A DNA stretch of 43,304 nucleotides, taken from sequence record SRR22947727_867; one strand, written 5' to 3'. Positions 1 to 28,673 of the stretch are shown piece after piece (the first letter of the stretch is position 1; each line of letters starts with the position of its first letter). A program made the translations under genes and the position numbers. The notes below the pieces were generated by a model. That model made no database searches and was not told the DNA's origin. It saw nothing but the letters and a program-made list of their open reading frames with translations.

Positions 1-867
1 CTTCTTCGCAGCAGGAGCCTTAGCAGCAGCCTTCTTCTCAGCGGCAGGAGCAGCGTCTGCTGCTTCAACAGGCGCTTCGGTCGTGGCGGCCGGGGCATCA
101 CCTGACTGCTCGAGGAGCTCGCGCTCCCACTCAGCAAGTGGCTCGACTGCGGAGACGTTGCCCTCAGCTTCAGGCTTCTGGTGGCGCTCAATGAGGCCCT
201 CAGCAACAGCGTCGGCGATCACCTTGGTGAGGAGAGCGACGGAGCGGATGGCGTCATCGTTACCAGGAATCGGGTACTGAAGGTCATCGGGGTCAGCGTT
301 GGAGTCCAAGATTCCCACGACAGGAATGCCCAGCTTTCTGGCCTCGTCGATAGCGAGGTGCTCGCGAATGGGGTCGATGACCCAGATCGCGCTGGGGGCC
401 TTCTGCAGGGTACGAATACCACCGAGAGACTTCTGCAGCTTGGTCAGCTCACGCTTCTTCAGCAACAGTTCCTTCTTGGTGTAACCCTGAGTGGTGTCCT
501 CGTAGTCGATTTCTTCAAGCTCTTTCATGCGACCCAGGCGCTTGGAGACAGTCTGGAAGTTGGTCAGAAGACCACCCAACCAACGCTCGTTCACATAGGG
601 CTGGCCGACGCGGGTTGCCTGCTCGGAGACAGACTCCTGAGCCTGCTTCTTCGTTCCCACGAAGAGGACGGTGCCGCCGTGGGCGACGGTCTCCTTGACG
701 AAGTCGTAGGCCTTGTCAATGTAGGCCAGGGACTGCTGAAGGTCGATGATGTGAATACCGCTGCGCTCGGTCAAGATAAAACGCTTGACTTTCGGGTTCC
801 AGCGGCGGGTCTGGTGTCCAAAGTGAACGCCAGCGTCCAGTAGTTGTCTAATAGTGACGGTAGCCAT
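1..867 (-). CDS. rpsB: 30S ribosomal protein S2 (3' end runs off the window)
   Basis: Translated by hand: [46 protein letters not shown]..., the S2 signature. SD AAGGAG at 875-880. Ala/Glu/Lys-rich tail. Not in the ORF track because it has no stop within the window. Confidence 0.97.
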
Positions 868-1030
868 GACGGCTCTCCTTTTATTCTCGGTTTCTCCCAC
901 ACGATTGTGTGAGCCTGGTGCCGAGGCCACCACCGCACTCCAACAGAAACTTCCCGAAGGGAGAGACTGTCTGGAGACCGACGGGTGTGAACCTTGATCG
1001 ACACGCGAAGTCACAGAGCGAACTCTGCGC
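868..1030 (-). promoter_or_regulatory. Structured rpsB 5' leader (probable S2 autoregulatory RNA element)
   Basis: -10 TATGCT at 1037-1042 (minus). Stem CTCCAGACAG/CTGTTGGAG (976-967 / 946-938) encloses a TCCC-TTCG-GGA hairpin (952-962). rpsB leaders are known S2 feedback elements. Confidence 0.6.
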
Positions 1031-1075
1031 CCGCCCAGCATAGCGCGTGCGACCGGGAAAAACGAGCGGGAGAAT

Positions 1076-1648
1076 CTAGCCCAGTGCGCCAATCGCCGGC
1101 GCGAGCGCCCGAAAGGCCTGGCCGCGATGAGACAGCTCATCTTTCTGCTCTGCCGTGAGCTCCGCTGACGTCACTGAGTGCCCCTCGGGAATAAACACGG
1201 GGTCATAGCCAAAGCCGCCTGATCCCGCGGGGTGGTGGGCAAGCGAGCCCTCCCACCGCTTCTCGATAACCACCTCTCCCCCGTCGTGGACGAGTGCTGC
1301 GGCGCAGACGAAGGCCGCTGCACGATCCTCCACTCCTGCCATCTCTGCGAGAACTTTTGCCGTGTTATCCGCATCTAACCCGGTCTCGGCGTAACGCGCG
1401 GAGAAAATTCCTGGTCGACCCTCCAGCGCGCGTACTTCGAGTCCGGAATCATCGGCGATGGCGGGGTGGCCCGTGGCCGCAAACGCGGAACGCGCTTTGA
1501 TCAGAGCGTTCGCCGAAAAAGTGTCGCCATCTTCCACCGGTGAGTCCTCCGGGGAGGGCTCGAGCGTGATCCCGGGAATGAGATCCTCCAGAATTCTCTG
1601 CAATTCCAGGACTTTGTGGGCGTTCTTGGTGCCCACCACGATGCGCAT
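1076..1648 (-). CDS. rdgB: Non-canonical purine NTP pyrophosphatase (RdgB/HAM1)
   Basis: TKNAHK, ENA-like [29 protein letters not shown] and SHRGQA motifs; directly downstream of rph. ATG at 1648 preferred over TTG at 1654. Confidence 0.95.
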
Positions 1649-1650
1649 AC

Positions 1651-2379
1651 TCAAGAAATTCCGAGGGCTTCGCGCTGAATCCGGGCAAGCTCGGTGGTGC
1701 CGGCAAGCGCCAAATCCAACAAACGGTCCAGTTCCGCACGCTCAAAGGGTGTCCCCTCCGCGGTTCCTTGCACCTCGACGAAGGACCCGCGACCGGTGAC
1801 GACCACGTTCATGTCCGTGTCAGCAGACACGTCTTCGACATAGGCAAGATCCAACAGCGGTGTCCCGTCGACGATGCCGACACTGATCGCGGCAACAGAG
1901 TCCCGCAGTGGAGCAGCGGACTTTTTCACGTGGCCGTGTTCGATGGCCCAGCTCAGCGAGTCCGCGAGCGCCACATACGCTCCGGTGATGGCAGCCGTCC
2001 TGGTGCCGCCATCGGCTTGCAACACATCGCAGTCGATGACGATGGTGTTCTCCCCCAGCTGGTTGAGGTCAATAATGCCGCGCAGTGAGCGCCCGATCAG
2101 TCGAGAAATTTCGTGGGTGCGACCGCCAATCTTGCCTTTCACGGACTCGCGATCCATGCGGTCGTTCGTCGATCGGGGAAGCATGCCGTACTCGGCCGTC
2201 ACCCACCCACGACCTTTACCGTTCAACCAGCGCGGAACACCGGGGGTGAAGGAGGCGGTGCAGAGGACTTTGGTGTTACCAAAGGAAATCAGCGCGCTCC
2301 CCTCGGCTTGCTCACTCCAGCCGCGCTCAATCGATACGGGGCGAAGCTCACTGGCGAGTCGGCCATCAGCGCGGGTCAT
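1651..2379 (-). CDS. rph: Ribonuclease PH
   Basis: [52 protein letters not shown] and EVQGTAE motifs. Confidence 0.98.
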
Positions 2380-3779
2380 GGGTTCTCCTTGCGGGTGCTC
2401 TCAATATGGGAGCGGAAATCTTCCGCCCGGTGTTGGTAATCACGGTACTGGCCAAAGCTCGGCGCTGCGGGCGAGAGGAGAACATAGTCTCCTGGTCCCG
2501 CGAGTTCGCGGGCTCGTGTCACGGCGGTTTCCATGTCAGGAACCTCTTCGAGGTGAACTGCTGGGGCATCCCCAGAGCGCTCGAGGGCTTCTCGAAACAA
2601 CCCCAGCAATTTCTGACCGCTCGCGGGGAGCCCAAGAATATGGCGGGGCTTGGACGCGAGCACCTGGTCCACCAGGGGCTGGTAGTCCACACCTCGATCT
2701 TGTCCTCCCACAATCCAGACCATTCCCGGCGAGGACAGGGATCGGAGTGCTGCTGCACCCGCCTGCGGGTTCGTCGCCAAAGAGTCGTTGATGAAGACAA
2801 CACCGCTGGGGTCAGTAATTTTCTCCAGGCGGTGGGGAAGCCCTTCAAAACTGCTGAGAACTGGCTCGATGGAGCTCATCACCAAATGCCCAGTCGCCCA
2901 GGCGATGGCGAGAGCCATCAGCATGTTGTGGTGGTTGTGACGCCCCACAATGCTGGAGTTCGCGGTGTGGAAAAGCCTCTCCTCGCCACGACAGAGCCAG
3001 GACTCGTCACCATCAGGCTCGAGATGCCACTCGTGTCCCTCTCCCACCCAGGTGATGAGCAGACCAGGGTGTCTTGTCGATAGCTCCTGACGCAGGATGG
3101 GATCATCCGCGTTAGCGACCACCTGTTCTGGTCCGTGCGCCACGATGCCGAGTTTGTCGCCGTAATAGGTGTCACAGTCCCCGTGCCAATCCAAATGCTC
3201 GGGGAAGAGGGCTGTGAGACCGACCACCCGAGGGGACGCCTCTAGGTAGTGGCATTGAAAGCTGGAGAGTTCTGCGGCATAAAACTCTGCGCTCTTAAGC
3301 CCCAGCAGGGGAATCCCCATATTGCCGCCCAGTGCTGCGTCAAGCCCTGAGCCCTGCAGAAGCGCGTGAACCAGCGTGGTGGTGGTGGATTTCCCCTTTG
3401 ACCCGGTGATGCCAACCATTCGCTCAGCATGCTCTGCCACAAACATCGCGCTGCCCGAGATCAGGGGAATGGAAAGTTCTCGAAGCGATCGATGAAGTTC
3501 ACTCGTGATCGCAATGCCGGGAGAGACGACCCCAATGGTGGCGTCCTGGCACGCGGACGGAATACCGCCCTGCTCATCCGCGATATGCAGAGGGATGCTG
3601 GGGAAAGACTTGCGAAAAGCCTCGGTGGAGGGACCCTCCCGGCCATCCACAGCCATGAGCGCAGGGGCAGGATTGAGAGCAGCAAGACGCGTCGCCACTG
3701 CAGTCCCCTCGCGACCCACTCCGGCTATGAGAACTTGCTGGCCGGCGAGATCCGCGAGAGCGGTCGGTGCTTTAGGCAA
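2376..3779 (-). CDS. murD2: MurD2-type UDP-MurNAc-peptide:L-glutamate ligase
   Basis: Mur ligase motifs with MurD2-like variants: [68 protein letters not shown]. Adjacent to murL. Start uncertain: TTG 3779 overlapping the murL stop is chosen; the ORF is open to 3854. Confidence 0.85.
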
Positions 3780-5133
3780 GGACGCTTCCCAGTGTTCCAA
3801 ACGGCGCAGGGAGACTGAGACGACCCTGGCGCTCGCCGAGGACCTGCTCCTCAAGTTCTGGGTGGTGCTTCAACAACTCCGGCATCTCCTCGGTGAGGGC
3901 ACTCACCACCGCACTGTGGCTCCAGTCACTCTGGTGAGAAATCCAAGTGAAAGCCAACAGGGACTCGGCCTGCTCCCCCACACACTCGAAGGGACGGTGC
4001 TCATGCAACCCCAGGAGTGCCCGGTACCCCTCAACCTGGGTGGGGTTATCCAGAAGGTTGTCGGCAAACATTCGGGTGAGAGAGGTCGAGGGAATAAAGG
4101 GGCTGAGAATCAAGAAGATAAAGCGACACTTATCGCAATCACCGCACCAGCGCGCATCCTCGACTCCACGACGAAAGGCTCTGTTGCAACTGGTGATCAC
4201 CGGGTGGTACTCCGGCAAGGCCGCGAAATAACGCGCAATTTGGACCTCGCTGTAGGGGCGCAAGAGAGAGAAGTACGCACCAGCGGAGAGCCCCGCCTGC
4301 GGGCCCAGCATGTCCTGGAGAAGACTTTCGGCTTCTTCAGATTTTGACCACTGGTGGTTGACCTCGTGACCATCCCACTCCAGCGTCGCTTCAGAAGCGC
4401 TCGCCTCGAGGGACATGACCACGGGGCCCAACCCAATAATCCGAGCTTGCACGAGGGCAATCAACGAGTTCATCGCGGTCACCGGAACATGGCCGTTGAG
4501 CGCCCCGGATTCATTGAGCTCCAGCAAGCGCAGGTCAAGGTCGCGAGTCGCCGCCAACACAGGGTGGCCCTTGATGCGCCCCACCCGATAGATGATCTTG
4601 TTGGGGTTCACCGCAAACTGCACCGGATGCATCCGAGCAGCCGCCAACAATTCGACGGTCACGACGGAGTCTTTGCCCCCACCAATGGGCACTAAGGGAT
4701 CACCGGTGGGTGTCTGGTGGTCAGAGTCCGACCAGGGCTGCGCCACGGGCGCCTCCATGACGATCTCAGGCGAGAGAAGGCCCGGAAACTTGTTGCGATA
4801 CGCGTACTCCGCAAGGCCTTCGCGCAGCACGGAGCTCAGGTAGGTGAGACCTGCCTGGGTCATTCCCTCCAGGGCAATGACATAGCGCCCAGGGGCAGCA
4901 ACCTTGTAGTAGCTCAGCCCTAAGACGGCGCCCAGCATGACGGCGAGCGAGCGAACCCGAGGCCAGTCAACATCGTGTTCGGGCCGCACCGGAGTGAAAC
5001 TAATGCGCTCAGTGAAGGCGTGCGTGTGCTCCGGAGAAACGAGCTCGTAGGTGAACGAAAAACTGAAATCTTCGGCAGAAAAATCGGCGGACAGGTAACG
5101 AAATTCGGTGTAGGAGGACGGATCGAACACCAT
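3772..5133 (-). CDS. murL: MurL-type UDP-MurNAc-dipeptide L-Glu epimerase
   Basis: GLSYYK, PP-loop-like GGGKDS, NGHVPVTA, NHQWSKS, SCN, WCGDCDKCRF and PFECVG motifs match my recollection of MurL. ATG 5133 has GGGAGG upstream. Coupled to murD2. Confidence 0.85.
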   Translation of the reverse strand: MVFDPSSYTEFRYLSADFSAEDFSFSFTYELVSPEHTHAFTERISFTPVRPEHDVDWPRVRSLAVMLGAVLGLSYYKVAAPGRYVIALEGMTQAGLTYLSSVLREGLAEYAYRNKFPGLLSPEIVMEAPVAQPWSDSDHQTPTGDPLVPIGGGKDSVVTVELLAAARMHPVQFAVNPNKIIYRVGRIKGHPVLAATRDLDLRLLELNESGALNGHVPVTAMNSLIALVQARIIGLGPVVMSLEASASEATLEWDGHEVNHQWSKSEEAESLLQDMLGPQAGLSAGAYFSLLRPYSEVQIARYFAALPEYHPVITSCNRAFRRGVEDARWCGDCDKCRFIFLILSPFIPSTSLTRMFADNLLDNPTQVEGYRALLGLHEHRPFECVGEQAESLLAFTWISHQSDWSHSAVVSALTEEMPELLKHHPELEEQVLGERQGRLSLPAPFGTLGSVLA

Positions 5134-5208
5134 CGCAGTCCACACCTCCCCTGATGTCACCTGGCCCGGCAACTCCCTCATCTTACGCCTGTGAGTGCAG
5201 GAAGCCTG

Positions 5209-6699
5209 CTAGTACTCGCGACGCACGGATTCCTGCTCGAGCACCTGCTCGAGGTCGCTCAAGCGGGCGAGGCCCCCCAAAGGCTTGGAGAGTCGATGGT
5301 TGCCCCGGAGGGCGTCCTGATTCTGGTGCAAGAAGTTCCAGTACCCGGCACTCATCGGGCATGCTTTCTCGCCGACTCTCACGGTCGGCTTAAATGCGCA
5401 GGAGCCGCAGTAATTGGTCATCGTGTTGAGATAAGCCCCGCCGGAGGTGTAGGGCTTCGTTGCCACCACCCCACCATCGGCGTATTGCGACATCCCGATC
5501 ACGTTTGCCGGCATCACCCACGGGGTTCCATCCACGAACGCATCCACAAACCAGTCATTGAGGGCACGGGGATTGAATCCTCGTTGCACAGCAAAACTGC
5601 CCAGCACCATCAGCCGGTTGATGTGGTGGGTCCATCCTCGGGTGTGGACCTCATCGAGCACTTGGGCAACACAGCGCGATCGAATGTCGGAAGAATCGAG
5701 CTCGCTCCACCAGGTGGGCAGTGGTTCCTGGTGTCCCAAATAGTTGGAGTCGACGAAATCTGGTCCCAGATGCCAATACAGGTGCCACACCCAGTCCCGC
5801 CAACCCATGACCTGACGGATAAAGCCCTCAGCGCTGGCGAGCTCCACCTCACCACGCTGATAGGAAGCCTCCACCCGATCGACCACTTCTCGGGGATCCA
5901 GCAACCCGAGATTGAGCGCAGGGCTGAGCAAGGAGTGGGACATGGCCCAATCTCCCTGCATCGCTGCGTCCTCGTGGGGACCAAAGGTTGAAAGCCTGGT
6001 GGACACAAAGTGCTCCAGAGCCTCCACGGCTTCTGCTCGTGTGGCGGGAAAGAGCCTCGGTCCATCCGCGCCGAGGAAGCGAACCTCGCCGGATGCTTCC
6101 AAACCATCCAGGTATTCGCGGACTTCCCGGTCAATCTCGTCTTCCACTGGATACCAGGGGGCCTCGACCCCCAGGGTGTCCTGTCCCCTCGGTGGTGGTT
6201 CCCGATTGTCGTGGTCAAAGTTGAACTGCCCGTCCTCTGGCTCCAGCTCTCCAGAGGCGCCAGAAACCATCAGAATCCCGGTCTGGCGACGCTGGTGGCG
6301 ATAGAAGTTCTCCATCAGCAAGCGCTTGGGCTGAGCAGAAGCCCACTGCCCAAACTCTTCCTCGCTCGCCACAAATCCCCGAGAGGGAAGCACCTCGAGA
6401 GTGGAGCTCTCGCTCAGATCCTGAACTAACGCCCGAAGCCCCCAGGAGGTGGGATTCACCACGCTGGCGTCTAGCCCGCCCAAGACCTCGTGATACGTCT
6501 CACCGCGCCTGATCTCAGCCCGTGACCCCAATTCGGCCGCCCGATGGCGCAGTGCCGAGAGAATCAGATGAGCTTTCTGGCGGTGGTATCGACGTCGCCG
6601 AAAGGGTCCGAGTACCTCGGGGATGATGACGGACTGGTCCTCCACAAAATGCGGACCCAATTGGTCCGCAAAAAGGATGCGGGGAAGGCTCGTGGACAT
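5209..6699 (-). CDS. Fe-S bacterial cryptochrome/photolyase (FeS-BCP; PhrB/CryB-like (6-4) photolyase family)
   Basis: N-terminal ILFADQL, ME.FYR..R, FNFDHDNR, FGPHEDA, HSLLSPALNLGLL, EGFIRQVMGWRD, HHINRLMV, KPY. Four Cys in the Fe-S pattern (SRC, YCGSC, ACP). Confidence 0.9.
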   Translation of the reverse strand: MSTSLPRILFADQLGPHFVEDQSVIIPEVLGPFRRRRYHRQKAHLILSALRHRAAELGSRAEIRRGETYHEVLGGLDASVVNPTSWGLRALVQDLSESSTLEVLPSRGFVASEEEFGQWASAQPKRLLMENFYRHQRRQTGILMVSGASGELEPEDGQFNFDHDNREPPPRGQDTLGVEAPWYPVEDEIDREVREYLDGLEASGEVRFLGADGPRLFPATRAEAVEALEHFVSTRLSTFGPHEDAAMQGDWAMSHSLLSPALNLGLLDPREVVDRVEASYQRGEVELASAEGFIRQVMGWRDWVWHLYWHLGPDFVDSNYLGHQEPLPTWWSELDSSDIRSRCVAQVLDEVHTRGWTHHINRLMVLGSFAVQRGFNPRALNDWFVDAFVDGTPWVMPANVIGMSQYADGGVVATKPYTSGGAYLNTMTNYCGSCAFKPTVRVGEKACPMSAGYWNFLHQNQDALRGNHRLSKPLGGLARLSDLEQVLEQESVRREY

Positions 6700-6743
6700 T
6701 GTCGCCAGTGTAGGAGTAAACCCTGAAGGGTAGGCTCTTTCCC

Positions 6744-8036
6744 GTGTCGACAGCCCTGCTCACAGATCACTACGAGCTGACCATGGTGGATGCCGCCCGC
6801 AAGTCAGGGCGGGGTGACCGCGGAGCCGTTTTCGAGGTGTTCGCCCGGCACTTGCCAGCCGGACGGCGCTATGGCGTAGTCGCTGGCACCGCACGCCTGC
6901 TCGACGCTATCGCCGAGTTTCGTTTTGGGCCACAAGAGCTCACTTTCCTGAAAGCCAACGCCATTGTGTCGAGCGAGACTCTCGACTGGCTGGAGTCCTA
7001 CCGCTTTAGCGGGACCATTCGTGGCTACGCCGAGGGTGATCTCTACTTCCCCGGCTCCCCCATTCTCAGCGTGGAGGGCGAGTTTCAGGAAGCCGTCGTA
7101 CTCGAAACGCTGATTCTCAGCGTGCTGAACTACGACACCGCTGTGGCCAGTGCCGCCAGCCGCATGGTCCAAGCAGCTGACTCACGACCGCTCATCGAGA
7201 TGGGGGCGAGACGCGCGAGCGAAAGAAGCGCTGTTGCCGCTGCACGCGCCGCCTACATCGCCGGATTTGATGCCACCAGCAACTTAGAGGCGGGGCGAAG
7301 CTATGGCATCCCCACTCGAGGAACAGCAGCCCACTCCTTCACCCTGGTCCACGACTCCGAGGAAGAAGCCTTCCAGGCGCAAATTGCGTCCATGGGTACA
7401 GGGACAACCCTCCTGATTGACACCTACGACATCGAAGCCGGGGTTGCCACCGCGGTGAAAGTCGCGGGCACCGAACTCGGCGCTGTGCGAATCGACTCGG
7501 GCGACTTACCCGTCGTGGTGCGCTCGGTTCGAGACCAATTGGATTCCCTCGGCGCGACCTCGACAAAGATCGTGGTCACCAACGACCTCAACGAACACAC
7601 CATTGCGGGCCTGCGAGGAGCACCCGTGGACGTGTTTGGCGTGGGAACGAGTGTGGTGACTGGTTCTGGATCCCCTGCGGTGGGCCTGGTCTACAAACTC
7701 GTGGCCCGAACCTCAGACCACGGCGAATTTGTGCCAGTAGCCAAGCGCAGCTCCCACAAAGGAAACCCGGGTGGGCGAAAGACCGCGTTTCGGATAGTGA
7801 ATGACGGAATCGCCAGCGAAGAAATCGTCAGCACTGACCCGACCTATCAACCCCCCGCTGGCGCGCGTGCTCTGCTGACCACTCTGATGGAGAACGGTGA
7901 GCCAGTCGGTTCGATGAGTCCGCACGACACCGTGGAAGCCGCCCGCGAACATCACCGCCTGGCACTGGCAGAGATGCCCGCTTCGGCGTTCTCGTTGAGC
8001 TCTGGAGAACCCGCCATTCCCACTCGAGTGCTCTAG
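6744..8036 (+). CDS. pncB: Nicotinate phosphoribosyltransferase
   Basis: LLTDHYELTM, FEVFAR, EMGARR, TSNLEAG, GTAAHS, LIDTYD, VRIDSGD, GVGT and VYKLV motifs. Confidence 0.95.
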   Translation: MSTALLTDHYELTMVDAARKSGRGDRGAVFEVFARHLPAGRRYGVVAGTARLLDAIAEFRFGPQELTFLKANAIVSSETLDWLESYRFSGTIRGYAEGDLYFPGSPILSVEGEFQEAVVLETLILSVLNYDTAVASAASRMVQAADSRPLIEMGARRASERSAVAAARAAYIAGFDATSNLEAGRSYGIPTRGTAAHSFTLVHDSEEEAFQAQIASMGTGTTLLIDTYDIEAGVATAVKVAGTELGAVRIDSGDLPVVVRSVRDQLDSLGATSTKIVVTNDLNEHTIAGLRGAPVDVFGVGTSVVTGSGSPAVGLVYKLVARTSDHGEFVPVAKRSSHKGNPGGRKTAFRIVNDGIASEEIVSTDPTYQPPAGARALLTTLMENGEPVGSMSPHDTVEAAREHHRLALAEMPASAFSLSSGEPAIPTRVL

Positions 8037-8059
8037 GCCTCCCCGGTTACCATAGGGGC

Positions 8060-8317
8060 ATGGCAGCAGACACAGAGGGCACTACTGACGTCCTCGACCG
8101 GGAACTGGAGAAACTCCTCAACGAGGAGCAAGTCGAGGATGGCGATCACGATCGCTACTCGCACTATGTCAAGAAGGACAAAATTCTCAAGAGTGCTCTC
8201 TCGGGCAAGCCCGTCATCGCACTCTGTGGCAAAGTCTGGGTGCCAGGCCGAGATCCCGAGAAGTTTCCGGTGTGCCCCACCTGCAAAGACATCTACGAGA
8301 AGCTTCGCGACGAGTAG
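8060..8317 (+). CDS. DUF3039 family small Zn-finger-like protein
   Basis: GDHDRYSHYV...ALCGKVWVP.RDP.KFPVCPTCK, typical of this actinobacterial family; adjacent to pncB. Confidence 0.85.
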   Translation: MAADTEGTTDVLDRELEKLLNEEQVEDGDHDRYSHYVKKDKILKSALSGKPVIALCGKVWVPGRDPEKFPVCPTCKDIYEKLRDE

Positions 8318-9688
8318 CTAGAGGTTGCCCAGCGTCACTTCGACTGTGTAGGTGTTGCCGGAGCGCACGTAGGTCAGGGTCGCATTTGACCCTCCGGGCA
8401 GGACCCGCACCTGAGCGGTCAAATCAATCCGGTTGGTGACCGGGAGTCCGTTGAACCTCGTCACAACGTCACCCGCTCGAATTCCCGCACGATCAGCTGA
8501 ACCCCCGGGGGTGACGCTGTCAATGTAGGCGCCAGTCACCGTGGCGGATGCCACCGAACTGGCGTCAGTGACCAGCGCACCCAAAAGACCATGGCTCGCG
8601 GCACCAGACTCGATCAGCTCGGTGGCAACCCGAAGAGCGAAGTTGGAGGGAATAGCGAAGCCCAACCCAATACTCCCCGAACCTTGCCCGCCGGTCGAGG
8701 CTATGGCCACGTTCACGCCGATGAGCTCGCCCGAGGTATTCAGGAGCGCTCCCCCCGAATTACCGGGGTTAATCGAAGCATCAGTTTGAATGACCGGTAG
8801 CGAGATGGTCTGCCCAATGGAAACACCGCCGGGCAGGTCAAAGTCGAACTGTCCATCTTCCTCACCGGGAGCGCTAGAGGCTCCAACCGTGATGCTCCGG
8901 TTGATCGCAGAAATGATTCCGCTCGTGACTGTCCCCGGGAGACCCAAGGGGGCTCCAATGGCGATGGTCTCATCCCCGACGTTCAGGGCATCAGAGTCGC
9001 CCACTGCCATCACGGAGAAAGGTCCCTCGCTGTCGATCTTGATCACGGCAATGTCAGAGAGAATGTCTCGCCCCACCACCGTGGCGCCGAGAAGGCGCCC
9101 ATCGGACGTGGTGACCCGAATAGCGGGTTCTTGAGCGCCACTGGAGACCACGTGAGCGTTGGTCATCACGTGCCCCTCCTCAGAGATAATCACGCCAGAG
9201 CCACTACCCGCGCCCTGAGCTCCCGCTACCTCGATTGTCACCACGGAAGGCATAGCGGTGGCAGCGACAGCGGTGATCTCACTGGCATCAGCAGGAGCGT
9301 TCACCGTGATGGTTTGGGGGCTTTGAACTCCTGGAGTCACCAAACCCCGGGATGACAGATTCCAGATAGCAAAGGCGCCGCCAGCGGTCCCGCCCAGCAA
9401 GCCACCGACCAGCAAGGCGGCGGTCACAAAGACACCGAGAGTCCTGGCGCGCTTCTTGTCGGCTTCCCTCACTCGAGCCTGGGCGCGCGTGTAGCTGTCG
9501 GAAATCCCACCGTATACGGAGGGGTCAAAAGGAGACACAGAAACAGGAGCAGATGGGGTGGAAGGTGCAGTGGCCGTATCTGCTTCGCCTGGAATCGCAG
9601 TCTCTGGGGCAGTCTCAGCCTCCGCCACCGTCTCGGGAGCGGTGTCGGGAGAGTCGCTGCTCTCCGGCGTGGGATCAGTCTGAGTCAC
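8318..9688 (-). CDS. HtrA/DegP-like S1C serine protease with TM anchor and PDZ domain
   Basis: GSGSGVI, TNAHVV, DIAVIK, IQTDASINPGNSGG, C-terminal PDZ, acidic N-terminus followed by a TM helix. GTG 9688 has AGGA upstream. Confidence 0.93.
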   Translation of the reverse strand: MTQTDPTPESSDSPDTAPETVAEAETAPETAIPGEADTATAPSTPSAPVSVSPFDPSVYGGISDSYTRAQARVREADKKRARTLGVFVTAALLVGGLLGGTAGGAFAIWNLSSRGLVTPGVQSPQTITVNAPADASEITAVAATAMPSVVTIEVAGAQGAGSGSGVIISEEGHVMTNAHVVSSGAQEPAIRVTTSDGRLLGATVVGRDILSDIAVIKIDSEGPFSVMAVGDSDALNVGDETIAIGAPLGLPGTVTSGIISAINRSITVGASSAPGEEDGQFDFDLPGGVSIGQTISLPVIQTDASINPGNSGGALLNTSGELIGVNVAIASTGGQGSGSIGLGFAIPSNFALRVATELIESGAASHGLLGALVTDASSVASATVTGAYIDSVTPGGSADRAGIRAGDVVTRFNGLPVTNRIDLTAQVRVLPGGSNATLTYVRSGNTYTVEVTLGNL

Positions 9689-21297: not shown

Positions 21298-22248
21298 ATG
21301 GGCCACACTGCTCTCATGCTATCGGCGCTGGCCACCAGCGCTGTCCCCGGTTTCCAAGCTGTGAGCACGCAAACACTCTCGAGCGCGGAGAAAGACGTCG
21401 CACTCGTCCATGACGTCAACCAGGTCGCCTGGTTGGTCGAGCTTCCCACCTCGGCCTCAGCAGAAGTAGCACACGCGGAGACCCTCCGGGCTGTGCGGGC
21501 GCTCAGCGAGGGGCTGCGCTCGAGGCTCTCCTTCCGTGTCCCCCGGCTGGAAGGAACGACGGAAGTCGGCCAGCACACCCTCAGCGTGTGCGAATACCTC
21601 CCCGGACAAGCCCCCTCCGCTCACAAGGTGACGCCCATTCTTGCGGCGTCGATTGGCACTGCTCTCGCGCAGATCCACTCGCTGCCCACCAGTAGCGTCC
21701 AAGATTTTGACCGCCCGGCAGAGAGTGCGATCGACTCCCTGCGGGAGTGCGCAGGAATTGTGGACCGCGCCGCCGCTACCGGGCTTATCCCCCAGGCTCT
21801 GTTGCGCCGATGGGAAACAGCCTGCGAGGACTCAAGCTTGTGGCAGTTTGAACCCACGGTGATTCATGGGCTGATGCAGCTGGGGCACCTCCTGGTGGAG
21901 AACGAGAACGTTGTCGCGGTGGACCAGTGGCGAGATTTCCGGGTGGGCGACCCTGCGAGGGACCTCGCCTGGCTCACCACTCCGGCTGCAAGCGAATTCC
22001 ACATGGCTGTGGTGACCTCCTACCGCAGCGCTCGCACCAGCGCCGATCGTTGGGTCATGCAGCGCGCACGCTTCTACGCTGAACTCGATGTCGCCAAGTG
22101 GCTGCTGCACGGCATGGACTCTCACAACGAGACCATCACCGAGGATGCCACCGCAATGCTCTCAGCACTCCATGACCGAGTATCCGGGGATATGGATCAG
22201 GCTCTCACCCAGCCCATCTCGCAGGCTAAACACCCGCTCGAGAACTAG
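21298..22248 (+). CDS. Aminoglycoside/macrolide phosphotransferase-fold protein, catalytic motif degenerate
   Basis: LAALATSAVPG-like N-terminus, LAQIHSLP, W.FEPTVIHG, GDPARDL. ATG 21298 lies 6 nt after TACCCT. Confidence 0.8.
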   Translation: MGHTALMLSALATSAVPGFQAVSTQTLSSAEKDVALVHDVNQVAWLVELPTSASAEVAHAETLRAVRALSEGLRSRLSFRVPRLEGTTEVGQHTLSVCEYLPGQAPSAHKVTPILAASIGTALAQIHSLPTSSVQDFDRPAESAIDSLRECAGIVDRAAATGLIPQALLRRWETACEDSSLWQFEPTVIHGLMQLGHLLVENENVVAVDQWRDFRVGDPARDLAWLTTPAASEFHMAVVTSYRSARTSADRWVMQRARFYAELDVAKWLLHGMDSHNETITEDATAMLSALHDRVSGDMDQALTQPISQAKHPLEN

Positions 22249-25200
22249 TCACTCCAGAGTGGCCGGAAAATATCCTCGAGTTCGACCAGCGTGGGCAGCA
22301 CCTCAGGGGTCAGCAGTGTTGAATCTCCGGCGTACCAAAAACTTGCAGTGACGCTCTCCTGGGAGACACCGGTCCACTGAGACCACGCCGCCCGGTAGGC
22401 GGCTAACTGGAGCGCCTTTGCCTCGATCTCCCGGGGATCGGAGGGCTTCGCGCCGGTCTTCCAGTCCACGATGTGGGGGCCTGTGTCTCCAGGGAACACC
22501 GCGTCCAGCTTGCACACCACGAGGTGTCCAGCCACGGGAAGGTGTAACTCCTGTTCAATGGCGAGCGGGGTCAGGGTTGCAAACGGCGAGGACTCAAAAG
22601 CATGAATCCACTCCTCCATCCCTAGGGTGTCGCCATCGTCATCGTTCTCCAGCCCACTGAGTGGATGCAGAGGCTTCTGCTCAAAGTGCTCCTCGACATA
22701 GCTATGGAACAGGGTTCCGCGCAGTGCTTGGCGATAGGGCTTCTGCGGGAGAGGCCGGCGAAGTGCGGCTCGTTGTGCGTCGGGATCCAAAAACCACCGC
22801 TCCAGTGAGGACGCGGGAATCCTCCGCGGAATTCTCACCTCGATACCGCTCGAGGATGAGCGGGCTCGATCGAGGCGAGTGATGAGGCCCGAAGCGGCAG
22901 GGGTCAGAGGATCTCCCAGCTCGCCGGCCTGAGCCTCGCGGACGCTCGCAGCTGCCTGTTCGACCATGGCTCGCCTGGACCCCAAGGGGTCAGGGGGCCA
23001 GACCCTCTCTTCGGATGCATCAGCCTCCGGGGGATTCTCATTCTGCGGATGGGTGGGCAGTGCGTCGACAATCCCCGCCTCCTCCAGGTGCTTCAAGAAC
23101 ACCGAAGGAGGACGAGAGGTGGTGTGGTGAGCCCAAAACGACCCACTGAGGAGTACTCGATGCCTCGCCCGCGTGATCGCGACATACATCAGGCGGCGCT
23201 CTTCCGCACCGCGATGCTTTTTGACGTCCTCCACAAACGCTTTCTGAGCGTCCACTAACTCTTTTCGAGTGGTGGCGGTTCGCCAGGAAAACACGGGGAG
23301 CGAGTCCCTATCTCCTCGGAAGTGATACGGAAGTTCCCCCATTCCCAGCCACGCGGACGTCTCCCGGGGTTTGGCGGGAACCTCGTCTTGTACTACTCGG
23401 GGAATCACCACATGGTCCCACTCGAGGCCTTTTGCGCCGTGGATAGTGAGGACCTGAACACACCCGGCCTCGGGTGGCTCCGCCCGAGGGGTGAGGTTGT
23501 CGCGCCTTTCGGCATCCTCCAGCCACTGCACAAAACCCTGCACGCTCGATTCCTCGGCAACGCCCACATAGGTGTGGAGGGCATCGTGGAAGGCTTCTCT
23601 AGCAGCTCGCGAGGTGACCCTGACGGGATTTGCCGCCACCTCAACATCCAGTCCGAGCGTCGACTCGATAGCGCTCACCAGCGAGTCCAGGTCTCCCACC
23701 TGCATCCGCGACAGCGTCGAGAAGGTGTCCCAAGCATCCCGCAGGCGAGCGGGTGCTTCGGCGGAATAGTCCCGCCATTGGGTGTGGTCCTCAGGAGCCT
23801 GAGCCATGAACCGCAGCGCATCAAACAACCCCGGGGCGTCGTGAGCTGACACGGAGTTCTTGAGACGCGCCTGAACATCGTCGGGGAGAGCAACACCGTG
23901 ATAATCCCGGCCCTGAAGCCAGCGGACTGTTCCGGCGAGCGCGTGGAGATCAGCGACACCGACTCGCCACTTGGCTCCGGCAAGCAGCCGAATCAGTTCC
24001 GATTCCGCTGAGGTCTGAGCGATAACTCGGAGAGTGCAGACGATGTCAGCGATTGCTGGGTCATCCAGCAACCCGCCAATCCCCAAGACATGGACGGGAA
24101 CCCCGCGCTGGCTGAGCGCATCAACAAAAACTCCCTGGTGCGCGCGGGCACGCACGATGATGGCAGCACTGGGCGGGGGATTCGACTCACCCAGGCGATC
24201 GGCAAGCCACGAGGCCACCTGCTCGGCCTCCTCCGCCAGTGTTTCGGGATAGACCACCTCCAGCGCATGATCACTGGCCTTGGGTGAGGGTTTCAGGGTC
24301 TCTACTTCGGGTCCGGGGAGTTCTCGAAGGGGTGCAGCAATGGTGTTGGCCGCATCAAGAATGCGGGCTCCATTGCGCCACGAGGTCGACAAGCTGTAGG
24401 TGGCAACGGACTCACCAAAGCCGGTCACAAAGTCAGCCAGGTTGCTACTACTCGCTCCTCGCCAGCCATAAATGGCCTGGTGGGGATCGCCCACCGCCAT
24501 CACCGGGTGCCCGCGAAACAGCTCTGTGAGGAGCGTCGTCTGGGCGACACTGGTGTCCTGGTACTCATCCAAGAGCACCACCTGATGACGAGAGCGCACC
24601 TGCTCGATGGCGTGCGGGAAGCGCTGCACAATCTCGAGCGCTAGAGCAATCTGGTCGGAAAATTCCAGAACTCCGCGCAGGCGCTTCGCTTCTTGAAATT
24701 TCTCGACGAGCGCCATCAGGGTGGTGAGCGAGTCGATCCGCTCTGCCCACTCCTCCACCTGCTTATACGCCCCTGTGCCCCCCGCGGGTAGGTCCACCAC
24801 GGCATGAAACTCCCGGACAAAAGCCTCCATGTCACCCGGCGCGACCCGGTTCTCCTGAAGGCGTGAACCCAGAGTGCGAACAATGCGCACCAAGCTGGGA
24901 ACCGTGATGTCCCACTGGGATAGCTCGGGCAGTGCGCTCGTCGACACAACCCGGGTGGCGAGTGACCATGCACTGGCTTCCGAGAGAACCCTCGCATCAG
25001 GGTCTCGACCGAGCACCACGGCGTGATCTCGATAGAGCGATGCTGCGAAAGAGTTATAGGTGGAAACGCTCGGGGTGTGGAACTCATCTGTAGTGGGGGC
25101 GAGCCCGCGCTCATGCAGTGCGCGAAGGCGGGAGAGAATGCGCGCGGACAGCTCGCCCGCGGCCTTGCGGGTAAAGGTGAGGCCCAGGACCGCATCGGGC

Positions 25201-25379
25201 TCGACATAGTTATTGGCGACGAGCCAGAGCACTCGGAGTGCCATGGTCTCGGTCTTACCCGAGCCTGCGCCGGCAATCACCCGTGCAGCACCCTCGGGGG
25301 GCGCTTCGATGACCGCAATCTGCTCGGCCGTGGGCTCGGGTAGCTCCAATGCCGCAGAAATATCTCTCGCACTATGCAT
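22245..25379 (-). CDS. adnB: AdnB helicase-nuclease subunit
   Basis: AGAGSGKT, LTFTRKAA, LDEYQD, VGDPHQAIYGWRGA, TIHGAKGLEW, EERRLMYVAITRA; C-terminal RecB-like nuclease (LDAVF, VDWKTG, QLAAY). Start overlaps the adnA stop. Confidence 0.9.
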   Translation of the reverse strand: MHSARDISAALELPEPTAEQIAVIEAPPEGAARVIAGAGSGKTETMALRVLWLVANNYVEPDAVLGLTFTRKAAGELSARILSRLRALHERGLAPTTDEFHTPSVSTYNSFAASLYRDHAVVLGRDPDARVLSEASAWSLATRVVSTSALPELSQWDITVPSLVRIVRTLGSRLQENRVAPGDMEAFVREFHAVVDLPAGGTGAYKQVEEWAERIDSLTTLMALVEKFQEAKRLRGVLEFSDQIALALEIVQRFPHAIEQVRSRHQVVLLDEYQDTSVAQTTLLTELFRGHPVMAVGDPHQAIYGWRGASSSNLADFVTGFGESVATYSLSTSWRNGARILDAANTIAAPLRELPGPEVETLKPSPKASDHALEVVYPETLAEEAEQVASWLADRLGESNPPPSAAIIVRARAHQGVFVDALSQRGVPVHVLGIGGLLDDPAIADIVCTLRVIAQTSAESELIRLLAGAKWRVGVADLHALAGTVRWLQGRDYHGVALPDDVQARLKNSVSAHDAPGLFDALRFMAQAPEDHTQWRDYSAEAPARLRDAWDTFSTLSRMQVGDLDSLVSAIESTLGLDVEVAANPVRVTSRAAREAFHDALHTYVGVAEESSVQGFVQWLEDAERRDNLTPRAEPPEAGCVQVLTIHGAKGLEWDHVVIPRVVQDEVPAKPRETSAWLGMGELPYHFRGDRDSLPVFSWRTATTRKELVDAQKAFVEDVKKHRGAEERRLMYVAITRARHRVLLSGSFWAHHTTSRPPSVFLKHLEEAGIVDALPTHPQNENPPEADASEERVWPPDPLGSRRAMVEQAAASVREAQAGELGDPLTPAASGLITRLDRARSSSSGIEVRIPRRIPASSLERWFLDPDAQRAALRRPLPQKPYRQALRGTLFHSYVEEHFEQKPLHPLSGLENDDDGDTLGMEEWIHAFESSPFATLTPLAIEQELHLPVAGHLVVCKLDAVFPGDTGPHIVDWKTGAKPSDPREIEAKALQLAAYRAAWSQWTGVSQESVTASFWYAGDSTLLTPEVLPTLVELEDIFRPLWSD

Positions 25380-28300
25380 CGCCACACACCTCCCCCACAA
25401 AGTGCCAGCGGTGCCTCGACGGTGTGCCGGCCGGTCCAAAACTCAACGGACCCCCGGTGAACTCATGAGACGCCATCAGAGCAGCGGCCTGTTCCACTCG
25501 GGCGAGGAAATCTGCCACACCCTGCTCATCGACCGGTGGCTGGGTAGTCAAGCGATACGCCTTCCCCCGAATACCCTCCTTGACGAAAAGTAGTGACGCC
25601 CCCGCGGAGACGAGATTCTCGGGGAGGACAGCACTGAGATCATCGGAAGTCAGTGCCAGCTGGTACGACAGGAGCTGGGGGTCTTCCACAACTTGGCTTT
25701 CTGTGCGTGACGAGCCGGTCTTGAGGTCGACCACCATGACCTGGCCCTCAGGGGTCATCTCGACTCGATCGATATATCCGGTCATCGTGGCGCGACCATG
25801 GGTGAACTGAAAACGTTGCTCGCTCGCGAGCACCGTCCACCCGTCCTTCTCGTGGTCGCGCAGATACTCGGCAAGCGCCGACACCATCGATTGAGCAAGG
25901 CGGCGCTGATATTGCTCAATCCAGCCCGCGTCATATTCCAGCTCCGCAAAGCGCGCCTCAACATTCGCCCACAACGTCTCGGCGTCGCCCGCGGGGTGTT
26001 CCTCCAGCGCGGAGTGAATCAGGGACCCCAATCCGCGCTGGGGGGTCGGGTCATGCCGCGCAATAGTCCCGAGGAACCACTCCACGGGCGATGACTCGAG
26101 GGTGTCCAGCGCCGAGGGTGAGACCGGAATAGGGCCTTCGGGATAGAGCGGCGCAATCGTCGAGGGTGGGAGCAGTCCCCACCACGTCGAGGGATCAGCG
26201 CCCGGAAGTCCGCGGGCGGCCAACACGGCGAGGTCGTGGGCGAGGGGCTGCGGATTCGCACCCTGTTCCAGCGCTCTCACCAGAGATCGCCGAAGACCCC
26301 CGACCACGGTGGCGCTCGACGAGGCGCCCTCCTCGGAGGATTCCAGCGATGTTGCGTGGCGATCGATCAGCGAAAACAGCGGACTTGGGCCTGACTCTTC
26401 GTCCATGGTGGCGGTGACCACCACGCGCCGGGTGGCCCGGGAGAGGGCAAGAGCGCAGACGCGCAGCTCATCATCCAGAACCGCTCGTCGTTCATCAAGG
26501 ATCGCGTCCGAGAGACCTTGGTGGGCGTAGACCATCTGGTGGGCACCGATTAGCGACTCTCGCGGCCGAAGGTCAGGCCACACCCCCTCCTCAAGCCCCG
26601 CGACAATGACCACCTCGAATTCACGGCCAGCAACTCCCGGTGGTGTGGACACCACCACACAGGGCCATGAGGGTTCAGGAACGAGCACATCATCGGGAAT
26701 CTCGGCACCCACAACGGCATCGAGGAAAAGCTCGGGGTTTGCCCCTGGTTGACTCTCGACAAAGTCAGAGGCCTGCCGGAAAAGTGCCACCACGGCATCC
26801 AGTGCGCGCTCCGCTGAGGGCAGTGGTGTCCCCTGGCTGGCGCCCTCGAGCCAGAATGTGGCGGCAGGTGAGCCATCCCATGCCCTCCAGAGCACATCGG
26901 TGACCGGAGTATCAGCCGGTGCGCGCCTGATGTCATCCAAGACCTCAGCGACTCGAGCTGCCTTTTTCGAGACCGAGCCCGGCAGCAGGGCGAAGCCCCC
27001 TCGGTGTCCTAACGCTTGGGCAATCATCTGGTCAGCGGGTTGATAAGGCTCGCCCGGGTCCGCAGCGACTCGAAGCGCAAAACGCAGTGCGCGAAGCTCT
27101 TGCTGGGTCATTCCTCCATACAGCCCGGTCAGAGCACTCACCGCACTCGAGGCGGTGAGCGGTGTTACTCCTCGACCGAGCGCGACCATGTCCACCAGTG
27201 CCCTCGCGGCAGGCTCCTCCACGAGCGTCATCCCCACCATCGCGGTGCGAGCCGGAATCCCCTGGGCGGAAAGAGACGCGGAGAGTGCGCTCACCCGAGA
27301 TCCACGCCGGGCAATCACCGCAATCTGGTCAAAAGCAACACCGTCCTGGTGGTGCGCATCGAGAATGATGCGCGCGATATCGGAGGCCTCCCGCGCATAA
27401 CTGGGAGCCAGCAGGCTCTCCACCCGACCAGGGTCACCGTGACCAGGGGCTTGTCGCTGAGAACCAGCACCCGCTGTTCCAATGCGCTCCGTGATGAGGC
27501 GAACCACCTGACGGATTTCTGGACCGTGACGGTGAACCTCGGGCAAGACTGTCGGTGGCGTTCCCCAGAGGCCCTGCAGGTGGAGGAGCCCTCGGGGTTC
27601 ACTACCCCGGAAGGTTCCCCCCGACAGGTCGGGCTCCGCCGTCACCGTCACTCCCACGCCAACAGACCGAAGGGCATCGAGAAGCTCGAGGCCAGCGACC
27701 GTGAGATCGTGAGCATCATCAACACCCACGTGAGCAAGGCTCTGGAACGCAGCGGGAAGTCCCTCACGCACGATGGCTTCAGCCCGGCGCAGAGTGTCAG
27801 CACTGGAATAAGCACCGGGTCGCGCACTGGCCAGGACGGTGCGCAGTTCGTCCCGGAACTCTGCCGCCGCTGCCCATTCTGGGCGTGCGTGGAGGGTTGC
27901 CAGTTCGTCAATCCGCTCGCGGGTCAGCGAGTGTTCGCTCGCCCGTGAGAGCCATTCCCTCAGTTCGGTGCGAAAACGGGGCGACGAGCGCGCCATATCC
28001 CCCAAAGGCTCAGGCCAGTGCGGCCCTGAGGCGTCCTCGAGGTGACCCTCGAGAAGGTCTTGGATATCGCCATCGAGCACACGGGCTTTGACCAACTCGG
28101 GAGGAGCGAGCGAGTGTTCTCGGTGATGCTCCTGGACAATGGCAAACGCGAAAGCTTGAAGCGAGCGAGCCCTCGGACCTGCTGTGGTGACCCCGAGGGC
28201 GAGACCCACCTGGTCGCGCACCCGGCTCGCGTGCGCACGGGTGGGAGTCACGATGAGAAGGGCATCCGGAGACACACCCTGGGCGTTGAGGGCTACCAGC

Positions 28301-28401
28301 CGATCCACGAGGAGTGTGGTCTTGCCACTTCCCGGAGCACCCAGGACCAGAGCACACTGCACGGGAGGTGCTCCAAGGAGTGGGTCGGTGTGGGATGCCA
28401 T
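25372..28401 (-). CDS. adnA: AdnA helicase-nuclease subunit
   Basis: GAPGSGKT, degenerate Walker B VDDAHD, EEGVWPDLR; nuclease SPS...GSLIH...GYIDRVE...VDLKTG...QLLSYQ. ATG 28401 lies 7 nt after TAGCCT. Confidence 0.9.
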   Translation of the reverse strand: MASHTDPLLGAPPVQCALVLGAPGSGKTTLLVDRLVALNAQGVSPDALLIVTPTRAHASRVRDQVGLALGVTTAGPRARSLQAFAFAIVQEHHREHSLAPPELVKARVLDGDIQDLLEGHLEDASGPHWPEPLGDMARSSPRFRTELREWLSRASEHSLTRERIDELATLHARPEWAAAAEFRDELRTVLASARPGAYSSADTLRRAEAIVREGLPAAFQSLAHVGVDDAHDLTVAGLELLDALRSVGVGVTVTAEPDLSGGTFRGSEPRGLLHLQGLWGTPPTVLPEVHRHGPEIRQVVRLITERIGTAGAGSQRQAPGHGDPGRVESLLAPSYAREASDIARIILDAHHQDGVAFDQIAVIARRGSRVSALSASLSAQGIPARTAMVGMTLVEEPAARALVDMVALGRGVTPLTASSAVSALTGLYGGMTQQELRALRFALRVAADPGEPYQPADQMIAQALGHRGGFALLPGSVSKKAARVAEVLDDIRRAPADTPVTDVLWRAWDGSPAATFWLEGASQGTPLPSAERALDAVVALFRQASDFVESQPGANPELFLDAVVGAEIPDDVLVPEPSWPCVVVSTPPGVAGREFEVVIVAGLEEGVWPDLRPRESLIGAHQMVYAHQGLSDAILDERRAVLDDELRVCALALSRATRRVVVTATMDEESGPSPLFSLIDRHATSLESSEEGASSSATVVGGLRRSLVRALEQGANPQPLAHDLAVLAARGLPGADPSTWWGLLPPSTIAPLYPEGPIPVSPSALDTLESSPVEWFLGTIARHDPTPQRGLGSLIHSALEEHPAGDAETLWANVEARFAELEYDAGWIEQYQRRLAQSMVSALAEYLRDHEKDGWTVLASEQRFQFTHGRATMTGYIDRVEMTPEGQVMVVDLKTGSSRTESQVVEDPQLLSYQLALTSDDLSAVLPENLVSAGASLLFVKEGIRGKAYRLTTQPPVDEQGVADFLARVEQAAALMASHEFTGGPLSFGPAGTPSRHRWHFVGEVCGDA

Positions 28402-28408
28402 CCCCTGG

Positions 28409-28430
28409 AGGCTAATCCACACAGCTGACG
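28409..28430 (-). promoter_or_regulatory. PafBC-type (RecA-independent DNA-damage) promoter of adnAB
   Basis: CGTCAG-N10-TAGCCT matches the mycobacterial TGTC(A/G)G-N10-TANNNT consensus with one mismatch; adnAB is a known PafBC target in mycobacteria. Confidence 0.6.
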
Positions 28431-28448
28431 TGTCGTACGCTAGACACC

Positions 28449-28673
28449 GTGGATATACGCATTGGAATTGTGAACACTGCCCGGGAACTGATGTTCCAGA
28501 CCACGCAGTCTGCTGCCGAGATTGAGAAAGCAATCGCTGACTCGGTGGGCTCGGACAGCGGAACGCTGCGCCTGGAAGATGAGAAGGGCCACATCTATGT
28601 GGTGCCCGCCAAAAACCTGGCATTCGTGGAGATCGGGCAAGAGAAAGCCCGCAAGGTCGGCTTCGCGCCCTAA
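28449..28673 (+). CDS. DUF3107 family protein
   Basis: MDIRIGI..TAREL...L.DEKG...VP...LAFVEIG....RKVGF; TACGCT 7 nt before the GTG. Confidence 0.9.
   Translation: MDIRIGIVNTARELMFQTTQSAAEIEKAIADSVGSDSGTLRLEDEKGHIYVVPAKNLAFVEIGQEKARKVGFAP

Follow-up and report, generated by a model that had tools for sequence, protein, structure and literature searches.

How does a bacterium make the D-glutamate (D-Glu) of its peptidoglycan when two unrelated genes occupy the chromosomal position at which its relatives encode glutamate racemase (murI)? The question is posed by a 43,304-nucleotide stretch of DNA from a marine bacterium of the genus Pontimonas (sequence record SRR22947727_867; the window, hereafter, is this whole stretch as analysed), in which an open reading frame (ORF) for a MurL-like protein (3772-5181, minus strand) and one for a MurD-family ligase (2376-3854, minus strand) lie ahead of the ribonuclease PH gene rph. 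Both ORFs are present as the overlapping genes described in an earlier note on the sequence. We conclude that the pair very probably provides the MurD2/MurL route to peptidoglycan D-Glu, that it sits in the murI slot, and that the canonical MurD of the division and cell wall (dcw) cluster has decayed; the enzyme activities are read from sequence. In this route MurD2 would ligate L-Glu to a UDP-MurNAc-amino acid precursor (MurNAc, N-acetylmuramic acid), and MurL, using ATP and releasing AMP, would convert that terminal L-Glu to its D form in a one-way reaction. The pathway itself has been known since 2017, when it was reportedly first described by Feng et al.; what is added here is its repeated in-place switch with murI and the series of MurD decay.

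The first ORF matches the NCBIfam model for MurL (NF041275) from end to end (E 3.9e-97, 325.5 bits; residues 20-445 against profile positions 3-425 of 447), and the five motifs by which it had been picked out all lie within it: GGGKDS (4683-4666), NGHVPVTA (4497-4474), NHQWSKS (4359-4339), WCGDCDKC (4149-4126) and PFECVG (3993-3976). No Pfam family matched the ORF even at E 10, and no relative in the PDB was found by sequence at E up to 1. A MurD2-type ligase gene adjoins MurL in all 21 loci inspected from the family (Microbacteriaceae). The same holds for 17 of 20 additional loci, which come mostly from other families or phyla, and the MurL and ligase trees are congruent. The ratio of nonsynonymous to synonymous substitution rates (dN/dS) in three close pairs is 0.05-0.10 for MurL and 0.11-0.14 for MurD2.

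The second ORF scores 293.7 bits against the murD model TIGR01087, above its cut-off of 211.95, and contains the Mur_ligase_M and Mur_ligase_C domains. Its ATP site is intact, with the P-loop GSKGKST and with H220 and K234 at the positions of E. coli MurD H183 and K198. Passing the murD equivalog cut-off speaks for a reading in which an ordinary D-Glu ligase has merely changed place and its MurL-like neighbour performs some other, QueC-like carboxylate-activating chemistry unrelated to epimerisation, as does the resemblance of the MurL fold, described below, to QueC, QatC and Cap9, none of which epimerises. The residues that govern the choice of glutamate enantiomer point the other way. In Xanthomonas oryzae MurD2, E197, R358, P433 and F435 replace D182, K348, A414 and L416 of E. 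coli MurD; the double substitution E197D/R358K converted MurD2 to a D-Glu ligase, and K319T made E. coli MurD accept L-Glu (PMC8788868). Residues of the window ligase were mapped by a HMMER alignment to E. coli MurD and by two MAFFT alignments; in one of these a Lysobacteraceae (Xanthomonadales) MurD2 reads E, R, P and F at the columns concerned, as published (PMC8788868), which checks the column mapping. In the numbering of the 492-residue frame, the window ligase has E219, R387, P465 and F467 at the D182, K348, A414 and L416 positions, and L359 at the K319 position. In 13 of 13 family ligases encoded beside MurL, the D182, K319, K348 and A414 positions hold E, L, R and P, with F or Y at L416, and the canonical dcw MurD of murI-carrying relatives has D, K, K, A and M in three of three. 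The window ligase thus differs from a canonical MurD both in residues (E, R and L instead of D, K and K) and in place, lying beside rph rather than between mraY and ftsW, and from these features we infer that it would prefer L-Glu.

The published signature is not universal. When 15 MurL-linked ligases drawn from several phyla are compared, the features shared by all are confined to R at the K348 position and L or I at the K319 position; D occupies the D182 position in seven and A the A414 position in four. Ligases with D and A at these two positions occur at Mycobacterium-type loci (L120, L112, L114 and L124), and it is because of them that E and P cannot serve as a general signature. In a ligase tree rooted on the canonical MurD of the family, all 31 MurL-linked ligases form one group whose branch has a Shimodaira-Hasegawa-like approximate likelihood ratio (SH-aLRT) support of 100, so that the window ligase, with its E, R, P and F switch residues, groups apart from canonical MurD. 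Taken together with the congruent trees, the adjacency of the two genes in distant phyla, the end-to-end match to the MurL profile and the failure to find any source of D-Glu for such an enzyme in the genomes searched (see below), these results make a relocated D-Glu ligase a very improbable explanation.

The assignment of the pair to the MurD2/MurL route leads to the question of its position. The earlier note had stated that murI normally precedes rph-rdgB near pncB, and this holds in Microbacteriaceae: in the neighbourhoods from 66 murI-carrying genomes, mostly of different genera with at least one genus represented twice, murI is followed directly by rph in all 66 and then by rdgB in 65, and a divergent pncB lies within 2 kb upstream in 54. 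MurL and MurD2 take the same place before rph in all 12 MurL loci (six coded genera and a named Galbitalea), so that rph follows either murI or MurD2 in 78 of 78 family loci. In 11 of the 12, pncB lies upstream of MurL; the order is pncB, MurL, MurD2, rph, rdgB in seven, a photolyase-related gene (DPRP) is interposed in four, all from Pontimonas, and one locus is cut by a contig end. A DPRP gene also directly adjoins murI on its upstream side in four of the 66 murI genomes, three of them with pncB beyond it in the fetched stretch, which indicates that this gene is older than the swap and stands outside the pathway; in Pontimonas it marks the upstream edge of the slot. The earlier note was therefore right to place the pair in the position of murI; its suggestion that this lineage had made the replacement holds in a wider form, since the same exchange is found in 7 of 96 sampled genera. 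It had also called MurL divergent from pncB: the two genes lie on opposite strands, but in the window they are separated by DPRP (5209-6699). No murI is present in the window, where the best tblastn match to the MurI of a relative has an E of 3.4.

The slot between a divergent pncB and rph-rdgB holds MurL-MurD2 in Pontimonas and several other Microbacteriaceae genera and murI in the rest of the family; since stop and start codons overlap, the pair would be expressed jointly with rph-rdgB. MurI (TIGR00067) shares with MurL both the slot and the physiological task of providing D-Glu for the stem peptide. Its fold and chemistry are unrelated: MurI makes free D-Glu, whereas MurL epimerises Glu on the nucleotide precursor at the cost of one additional ATP. 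A different order was seen in one metagenome-assembled genome titled Microbacteriaceae bacterium (L110, 3583-7683), in which the pair follows rdgB (rph, rdgB, MurL, MurD2) and no murI match lies upstream of rph. Its MurL is 40% identical and stands far from the family clade, and the locus looks like either a second, independent acquisition or a mis-binned contig.

Whether the pair replaces murI or is added to it depends on other sources of D-Glu, and genome-wide searches were made for these in close relatives of the window. The nearest (G001; 61% of sampled 31-mers in common, 1.2 Mb in 80 contigs, 91% complete) carries the same pair, with a MurL that differs at one residue. No murI match was found in it, and none of 38 Pontimonas genomes, including a single-contig genome rated 99% complete, reaches the murI cut-off, in agreement with the replacement that had been predicted. 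MurL is present in 23 of 25 Pontimonas genomes, and the two without it are 56% and 79% complete. The search for a D-amino-acid transaminase, which the earlier note had suggested, gave a best score of 33.9 bits against a cut-off of 277 in five MurL-positive genomes, and the same five contain no match to the Asp/Glu racemase family PF01177. In an even draw of 201 Microbacteriaceae genomes at least 85% complete, from 96 genera, MurL is found in 14 (the 7 genera above), murI in 184 and neither in 3; murI is missing from all 14 MurL-positive genomes and present in 184 of the 187 others. Outside the family, MurL was not found when 16 further families of the order were sampled with one genome apiece. 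The three genomes with neither gene (G053, G059 and G152) are rated 98%, 98% and 95% complete.

A further indication comes from the canonical MurD, which lies outside the window and was surveyed in 16 MurL-positive genomes of 7 genera. The search for a canonical murD in the dcw cluster, another check named in the earlier note, returned no working copy and only a dead remnant. Between mraY and ftsW in G001 is a 334-residue frame that matches canonical MurD over its first two domains, with 39% identity, and reads MVRHSAES where relatives have GTNGKTT; a separate 102.9-bit 'murD' match in the same cluster proved to be murC. All 16 of the 16 MurL-positive genomes have a catalytically dead dcw MurD, and in 15 it is without the last domain, the one that in Mur ligases binds the incoming amino acid. 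These shortened proteins end at canonical positions 317-345 of 519 (most at 334-345), and the five that were aligned residue by residue are all without the P-loop. The remaining one, in G086, is full length and retains the P-loop, and the residues expected at the K198, K319 and K348 positions are gone. Among genomes with murI, dcw MurD is intact, full length and carries GTNGKTT in three of three aligned, and gives a full-length match of 349-389 bits in all five searched. We propose that, since no free D-Glu is needed when MurD2 and MurL operate, the dcw MurD was free to lose its catalytic residues and, for the majority of lineages, the last domain with its amino-acid binding.

In G097 and G086 the remnant clusters with intact MurD from the nearest relatives of each (SH-aLRT 97) and not with the other remnants, and decay must therefore have arisen more than once, stopping at the same domain border. 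The remnant is nevertheless no plain pseudogene, an explanation ruled out by a frame that is open in 15 of 16 genomes and by dN/dS of 0.09-0.19. Values in four pairs are 0.105, 0.116, 0.158 and 0.18, to be set beside 0.005-0.05 for mraY and near the MurD2 range given above, and the remnant is under purifying selection. The pair G005-G004 was left out of this comparison for an in-frame TAG and an inconsistent dN in G004, and the pair G074-G227 was treated as unreliable, its values being high in every gene (mraY 0.21, MurL 0.34, MurD2 0.54, remnant 0.60). The TAG, the only one within the frame of the G004 remnant (L127, 1177-2181), is either a sequencing error or the mark of a truly dying copy. 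A structural model of the remnant (predicted local distance difference test score (pLDDT) 89.0, predicted template modelling score (pTM) 0.87) overlays MurD structures (3lk7: E 2.9e-14, template modelling score 0.73 over 333 columns). In three Micromonosporaceae chromosomes that use MurD2/MurL (L145, L146 and L147), mraY is followed directly by ftsW, with neither murD nor a remnant between them, which is the final stage of the decay that Microbacteriaceae display.

The state of dcw MurD bears directly on a reading in which the pair is an addition, accessory or back-up, to a pathway that still obtains free D-Glu from murI, a transaminase or another racemase missed in the assemblies. In that case the sole ligase that uses D-Glu would be a dcw MurD without its P-loop and last domain; no murI reaches the cut-off in the whole genus sample, its single-contig genome included, neither PF01177 nor a transaminase above cut-off was found in the five MurL-positive genomes, and MurL and murI exclude one another across the family sample. 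We therefore regard such an addition as highly unlikely and retain replacement of murI by the MurD2/MurL pair. What speaks for it belongs with the points that weigh against our reading as a whole. The absence of murI is seen in close relatives, and the stand-in genome G001 is rated 91% complete and lies in 80 contigs. Six of the 38 Pontimonas genomes (G005, G007, G009, G010, G013 and G252) have a frame with a weak, 21-31-bit match to the glutamate racemase model. This frame, of about 233 residues in five genomes and 177 in G013, matches the middle of the model (for example G010:C113:724-1128), does not occur in G001, and may encode a further protein of the Asp/Glu racemase superfamily. The score of the window MurL lies below the curated equivalog cut-off of 700 bits for NF041275, a model named for Xanthomonadales, and NCBI's pipeline would for that reason leave the protein unnamed as MurL. 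Identity to the nearest named Micromonospora proteins is 44% for MurL and 41% for MurD2, and the trees are quick ones, with SH-aLRT support only and with outgroups taken from the best 80 of at least 589 loci. Finally, the peptidoglycan of Microbacteriaceae is of group B, position 1 being Gly or Ser, and given this wall type the true substrate may differ from the characterised one.

The last point can be carried further, to a reading in which the pathway is the same and its substrate is UDP-MurNAc-Gly or -Ser rather than UDP-MurNAc-L-Ala, the family clade being a substrate variant. The trees lend it something: MurL and MurD2 of the family form distinct and well-supported clades, with a long MurL branch (0.57 changes per column) and an SH-aLRT of 99 for MurD2. 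We consider a substrate variant unlikely, if clearly more plausible than the two readings weighed above, and keep to the characterised route as the preferred interpretation.

From where, and how often, did the pair enter the slot? Trees of MurL (unrooted) and MurD2 were built by the quick method, with the outgroups drawn from one-genome-per-species contigs. In the MurL tree all 25 rows from the family fall into a single clade (SH-aLRT 100, the stem being the long branch noted above) sister to Micromonosporaceae (91), and in the MurD2 tree the 18 family rows do likewise (99), again as sister to Micromonosporaceae (95). Orthologues from Micromonospora and Salinispora have been assayed in vitro (PMC8788868), and the window MurL is thus placed next to the family of the assayed genera. 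Because the two trees match, the pair appears to have entered the family once, as a unit. The trees that the earlier note had proposed for finding the donor thus yield a nearest sampled sister, Micromonosporaceae among the best 80 of at least 589 loci, and not the donor itself.

The flanking genes tell of a more complex history. In a tree of pncB, rph and rdgB together (78 rows, 868 columns), the 12 MurL rows all fall within a single 32-row portion of the family, interleaved with murI rows. For two of the MurL genomes the sister is a murI genome from the same genus (support 90 and 96). The slot label needs six changes on this tree, at least three of them forced by its starred branches; shuffled labels need 11.3 on average, and none of 500 shuffles was as low. 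Forcing the 12 MurL rows into one clade costs 237.3 log-likelihood units (p 0.0001 in the approximately unbiased (AU) test). This test was run on a 38-row subclade, for a group defined by the MurL feature and chosen with the free tree already seen. A single origin of the cassette, combined with flanks that reject a single MurL-positive clade, implies that the slot switched state several times, and the count is conservative, since linked flanks would, if anything, pull MurL rows together. The divergence of MurL tracks that of mraY with ratios of 1.6-2.1 in three pairs, which fits either vertical descent or donors of close kin. The changes could be repeated gains from relatives or reversions to murI.

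Tentatively, and as a proposal that may well prove wrong in part or whole, we suggest that murI and MurL-MurD2 could behave as interchangeable alleles of one slot in Microbacteriaceae, swapped repeatedly among related lineages via recombination on the flanks, pncB and rph, which are conserved. Whenever a lineage turned to MurL-MurD2, the same decay of dcw MurD would follow, with the catalytic lysines and the P-loop going before the Glu-binding domain, itself lost cleanly, and selection would maintain the two-domain remainder for another function that is not catalytic, such as scaffolding the assembly of Mur ligases or of the divisome.

How MurL might perform its reaction was approached through its predicted structure. 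QueC-type enzymes adenylate a carboxylate, and the AlphaFold (AF2) model of MurL, built on 31 relatives (pLDDT 91.9, pTM 0.91), resembles this group. Its best match is QatC of the QatABCD defence system (9y01_B: Foldseek E 1.8e-4; VIA Z 18.8, root-mean-square deviation 3.8, 322 residues, model 23-429), followed by QueC (Z 13.1 for 2pg3, and 12.8), Cap9 (9nto_B, Z 12.7) and other PP-loop ATP pyrophosphatases (Z 8-10). Invariant in the 31 relatives are G167-G-G-K-D-S172, C332, C346, C349, C352 and C400. MurL thus models as a QueC/QatC-like PP-loop fold in which GGGKDS would read as the PP-loop, and its clustered cysteines fall, as placed by eye, at what we take to be the position of the QueC zinc site. 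According to two reviews, MurL 'lacks known conserved domains', requires ATP and Mg, forms AMP and works in the L-to-D direction alone, and its chemistry is called unclear (PMC8788868; PMC5808125). Its discoverers are reported to have proposed adenylation of the Glu alpha-carboxylate, which matches the QueC-type reaction. The modelled PP-loop fold is consistent with AMP formation, without showing it. On this model the QueC-like site would adenylate the alpha-carboxylate and so make the alpha-proton exchangeable, the invariant four-cysteine cluster would probably bind zinc, and the invariant C400 is a candidate for the base in proton exchange or for a transient thioester carrier. The likeness to QueC, QatC and Cap9 is one of predicted fold, a PP-loop-type GGGKDS and the cysteine cluster; identity is 10-16%, the substrates of MurL are different, and it has no known amide or nitrile product. 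No QueC model of Pfam or NCBIfam matched, the likeness to QueC being in predicted fold alone. The relationship is a resemblance in mechanism and not membership. A full-text literature search returned nothing relevant that links MurL to the PP-loop.

In the window, DPRP, MurL, MurD2, rph and rdgB run head to tail on the minus strand, with pncB in the opposite direction. The MurL frame encodes 469 residues from ATG 5181 or 453 from ATG 5133. The latter is more likely the start, judging from several relatives whose MurL begins at the residue aligned with it and from the model, in which residues 1-15 counted from 5181 have a pLDDT below 50. The longest frame of the ligase, 2376-3854, encodes 492 residues, and relatives align only from residue 28-34 of it, for which reason translation probably begins at TTG 3779, five bases after GGGAAG (3790-3785), giving 467 residues (2376-3779); TTG 3800 and TTG 3854 are in-frame alternatives. 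With this start the MurL stop (TAA, 3774-3772) and the MurD2 start (TTG, 3779-3777) overlap by 8 nucleotides (3772-3779). The ATGA overlap of ligase and rph at 2376-2379 that the earlier note reported is read directly from the letters: the ligase ends with TGA at 2378-2376, and the rph ATG at 2379-2377 stands behind AAGGAG (2390-2385). The downstream flank of the slot, rph, occupies 1651-2379 (minus strand; TIGR01966, E 1.1e-108), and rdgB, for the non-canonical purine NTP pyrophosphatase, 1076-1654 (minus strand; TIGR00042, 168 bits against a cut-off of 145.35). Upstream of MurL, the DPRP gene on the minus strand encodes 496 residues (PF04244, E 1.9e-30), and pncB, for nicotinate phosphoribosyltransferase, is the divergent flank at 6744-8036 (plus strand; NF006698, 653.3 bits against a cut-off of 531).

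The GC content is 0.58-0.63 across positions 1-9000 with no step at the two genes, which rules out a recent foreign insertion of the cassette. A promoter and terminator scan of 1-8200 gave sites no more numerous than in shuffles, and no operon boundaries were therefore drawn from it. Elsewhere the window carries ordinary housekeeping genes, for an HtrA-like protease, a UPF0182-type membrane protein, UvrD/AddA-like helicases, NudC, a DEAD-box helicase, ZupT and XerC/D. Two adjacent long helicase-nuclease-like genes at 22245-28623 (minus strand; 1064 and 1083 residues, UvrD/AddA-type matches) look, from their sequences, like an AdnA/AdnB-type pair, which is ordinary for actinobacteria.

Compared with the known MurD2/MurL system, the window shares two adjacent genes, the E, R, P and F residues of the ligase, end-to-end homology of MurL and, in the genomes searched, the absence of murI and of a D-amino-acid transaminase. 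It differs in that the pair occupies the murI slot. The arrangement also differs from that in Micromonosporaceae: there the pair is divergent in four loci and tandem in a fifth, from Longispora, and a sixth locus showed no ligase, whereas the window pair is tandem and coupled to rph-rdgB; and the three Micromonosporaceae chromosomes have nothing between mraY and ftsW, whereas Microbacteriaceae keep a dead MurD in the dcw cluster. The genus lists of the two reviews do not include Microbacteriaceae; in these reviews the pathway is said to be confined to a rather small number of genera and to be a target for narrow-spectrum inhibitors (PMC8788868; PMC5808125). Full-text literature searches, covering listings and abstracts, returned nothing on MurD2/MurL in Microbacteriaceae or on a dead MurD; the primary papers and their supplements may list more taxa.

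The MurD2/MurL route thus would serve a whole genus of abundant, small-genome marine actinobacteria, Pontimonas, together with six other Microbacteriaceae genera. Automatic annotation would make MurL a hypothetical protein and MurD2 an ordinary MurD, and metabolic reconstructions would wrongly report that a D-Glu source is missing. For MurL itself, the QueC/QatC-like model supplies a concrete hypothesis of its chemistry. The family amounts to a natural experiment, in which one slot holds either solution, sometimes within a single genus, and the displaced MurD is found in graded decay under selection; it makes testable, in cultured and harmless relatives, both the displacement of an essential enzyme by an unrelated one and a possible role for MurD beyond catalysis.

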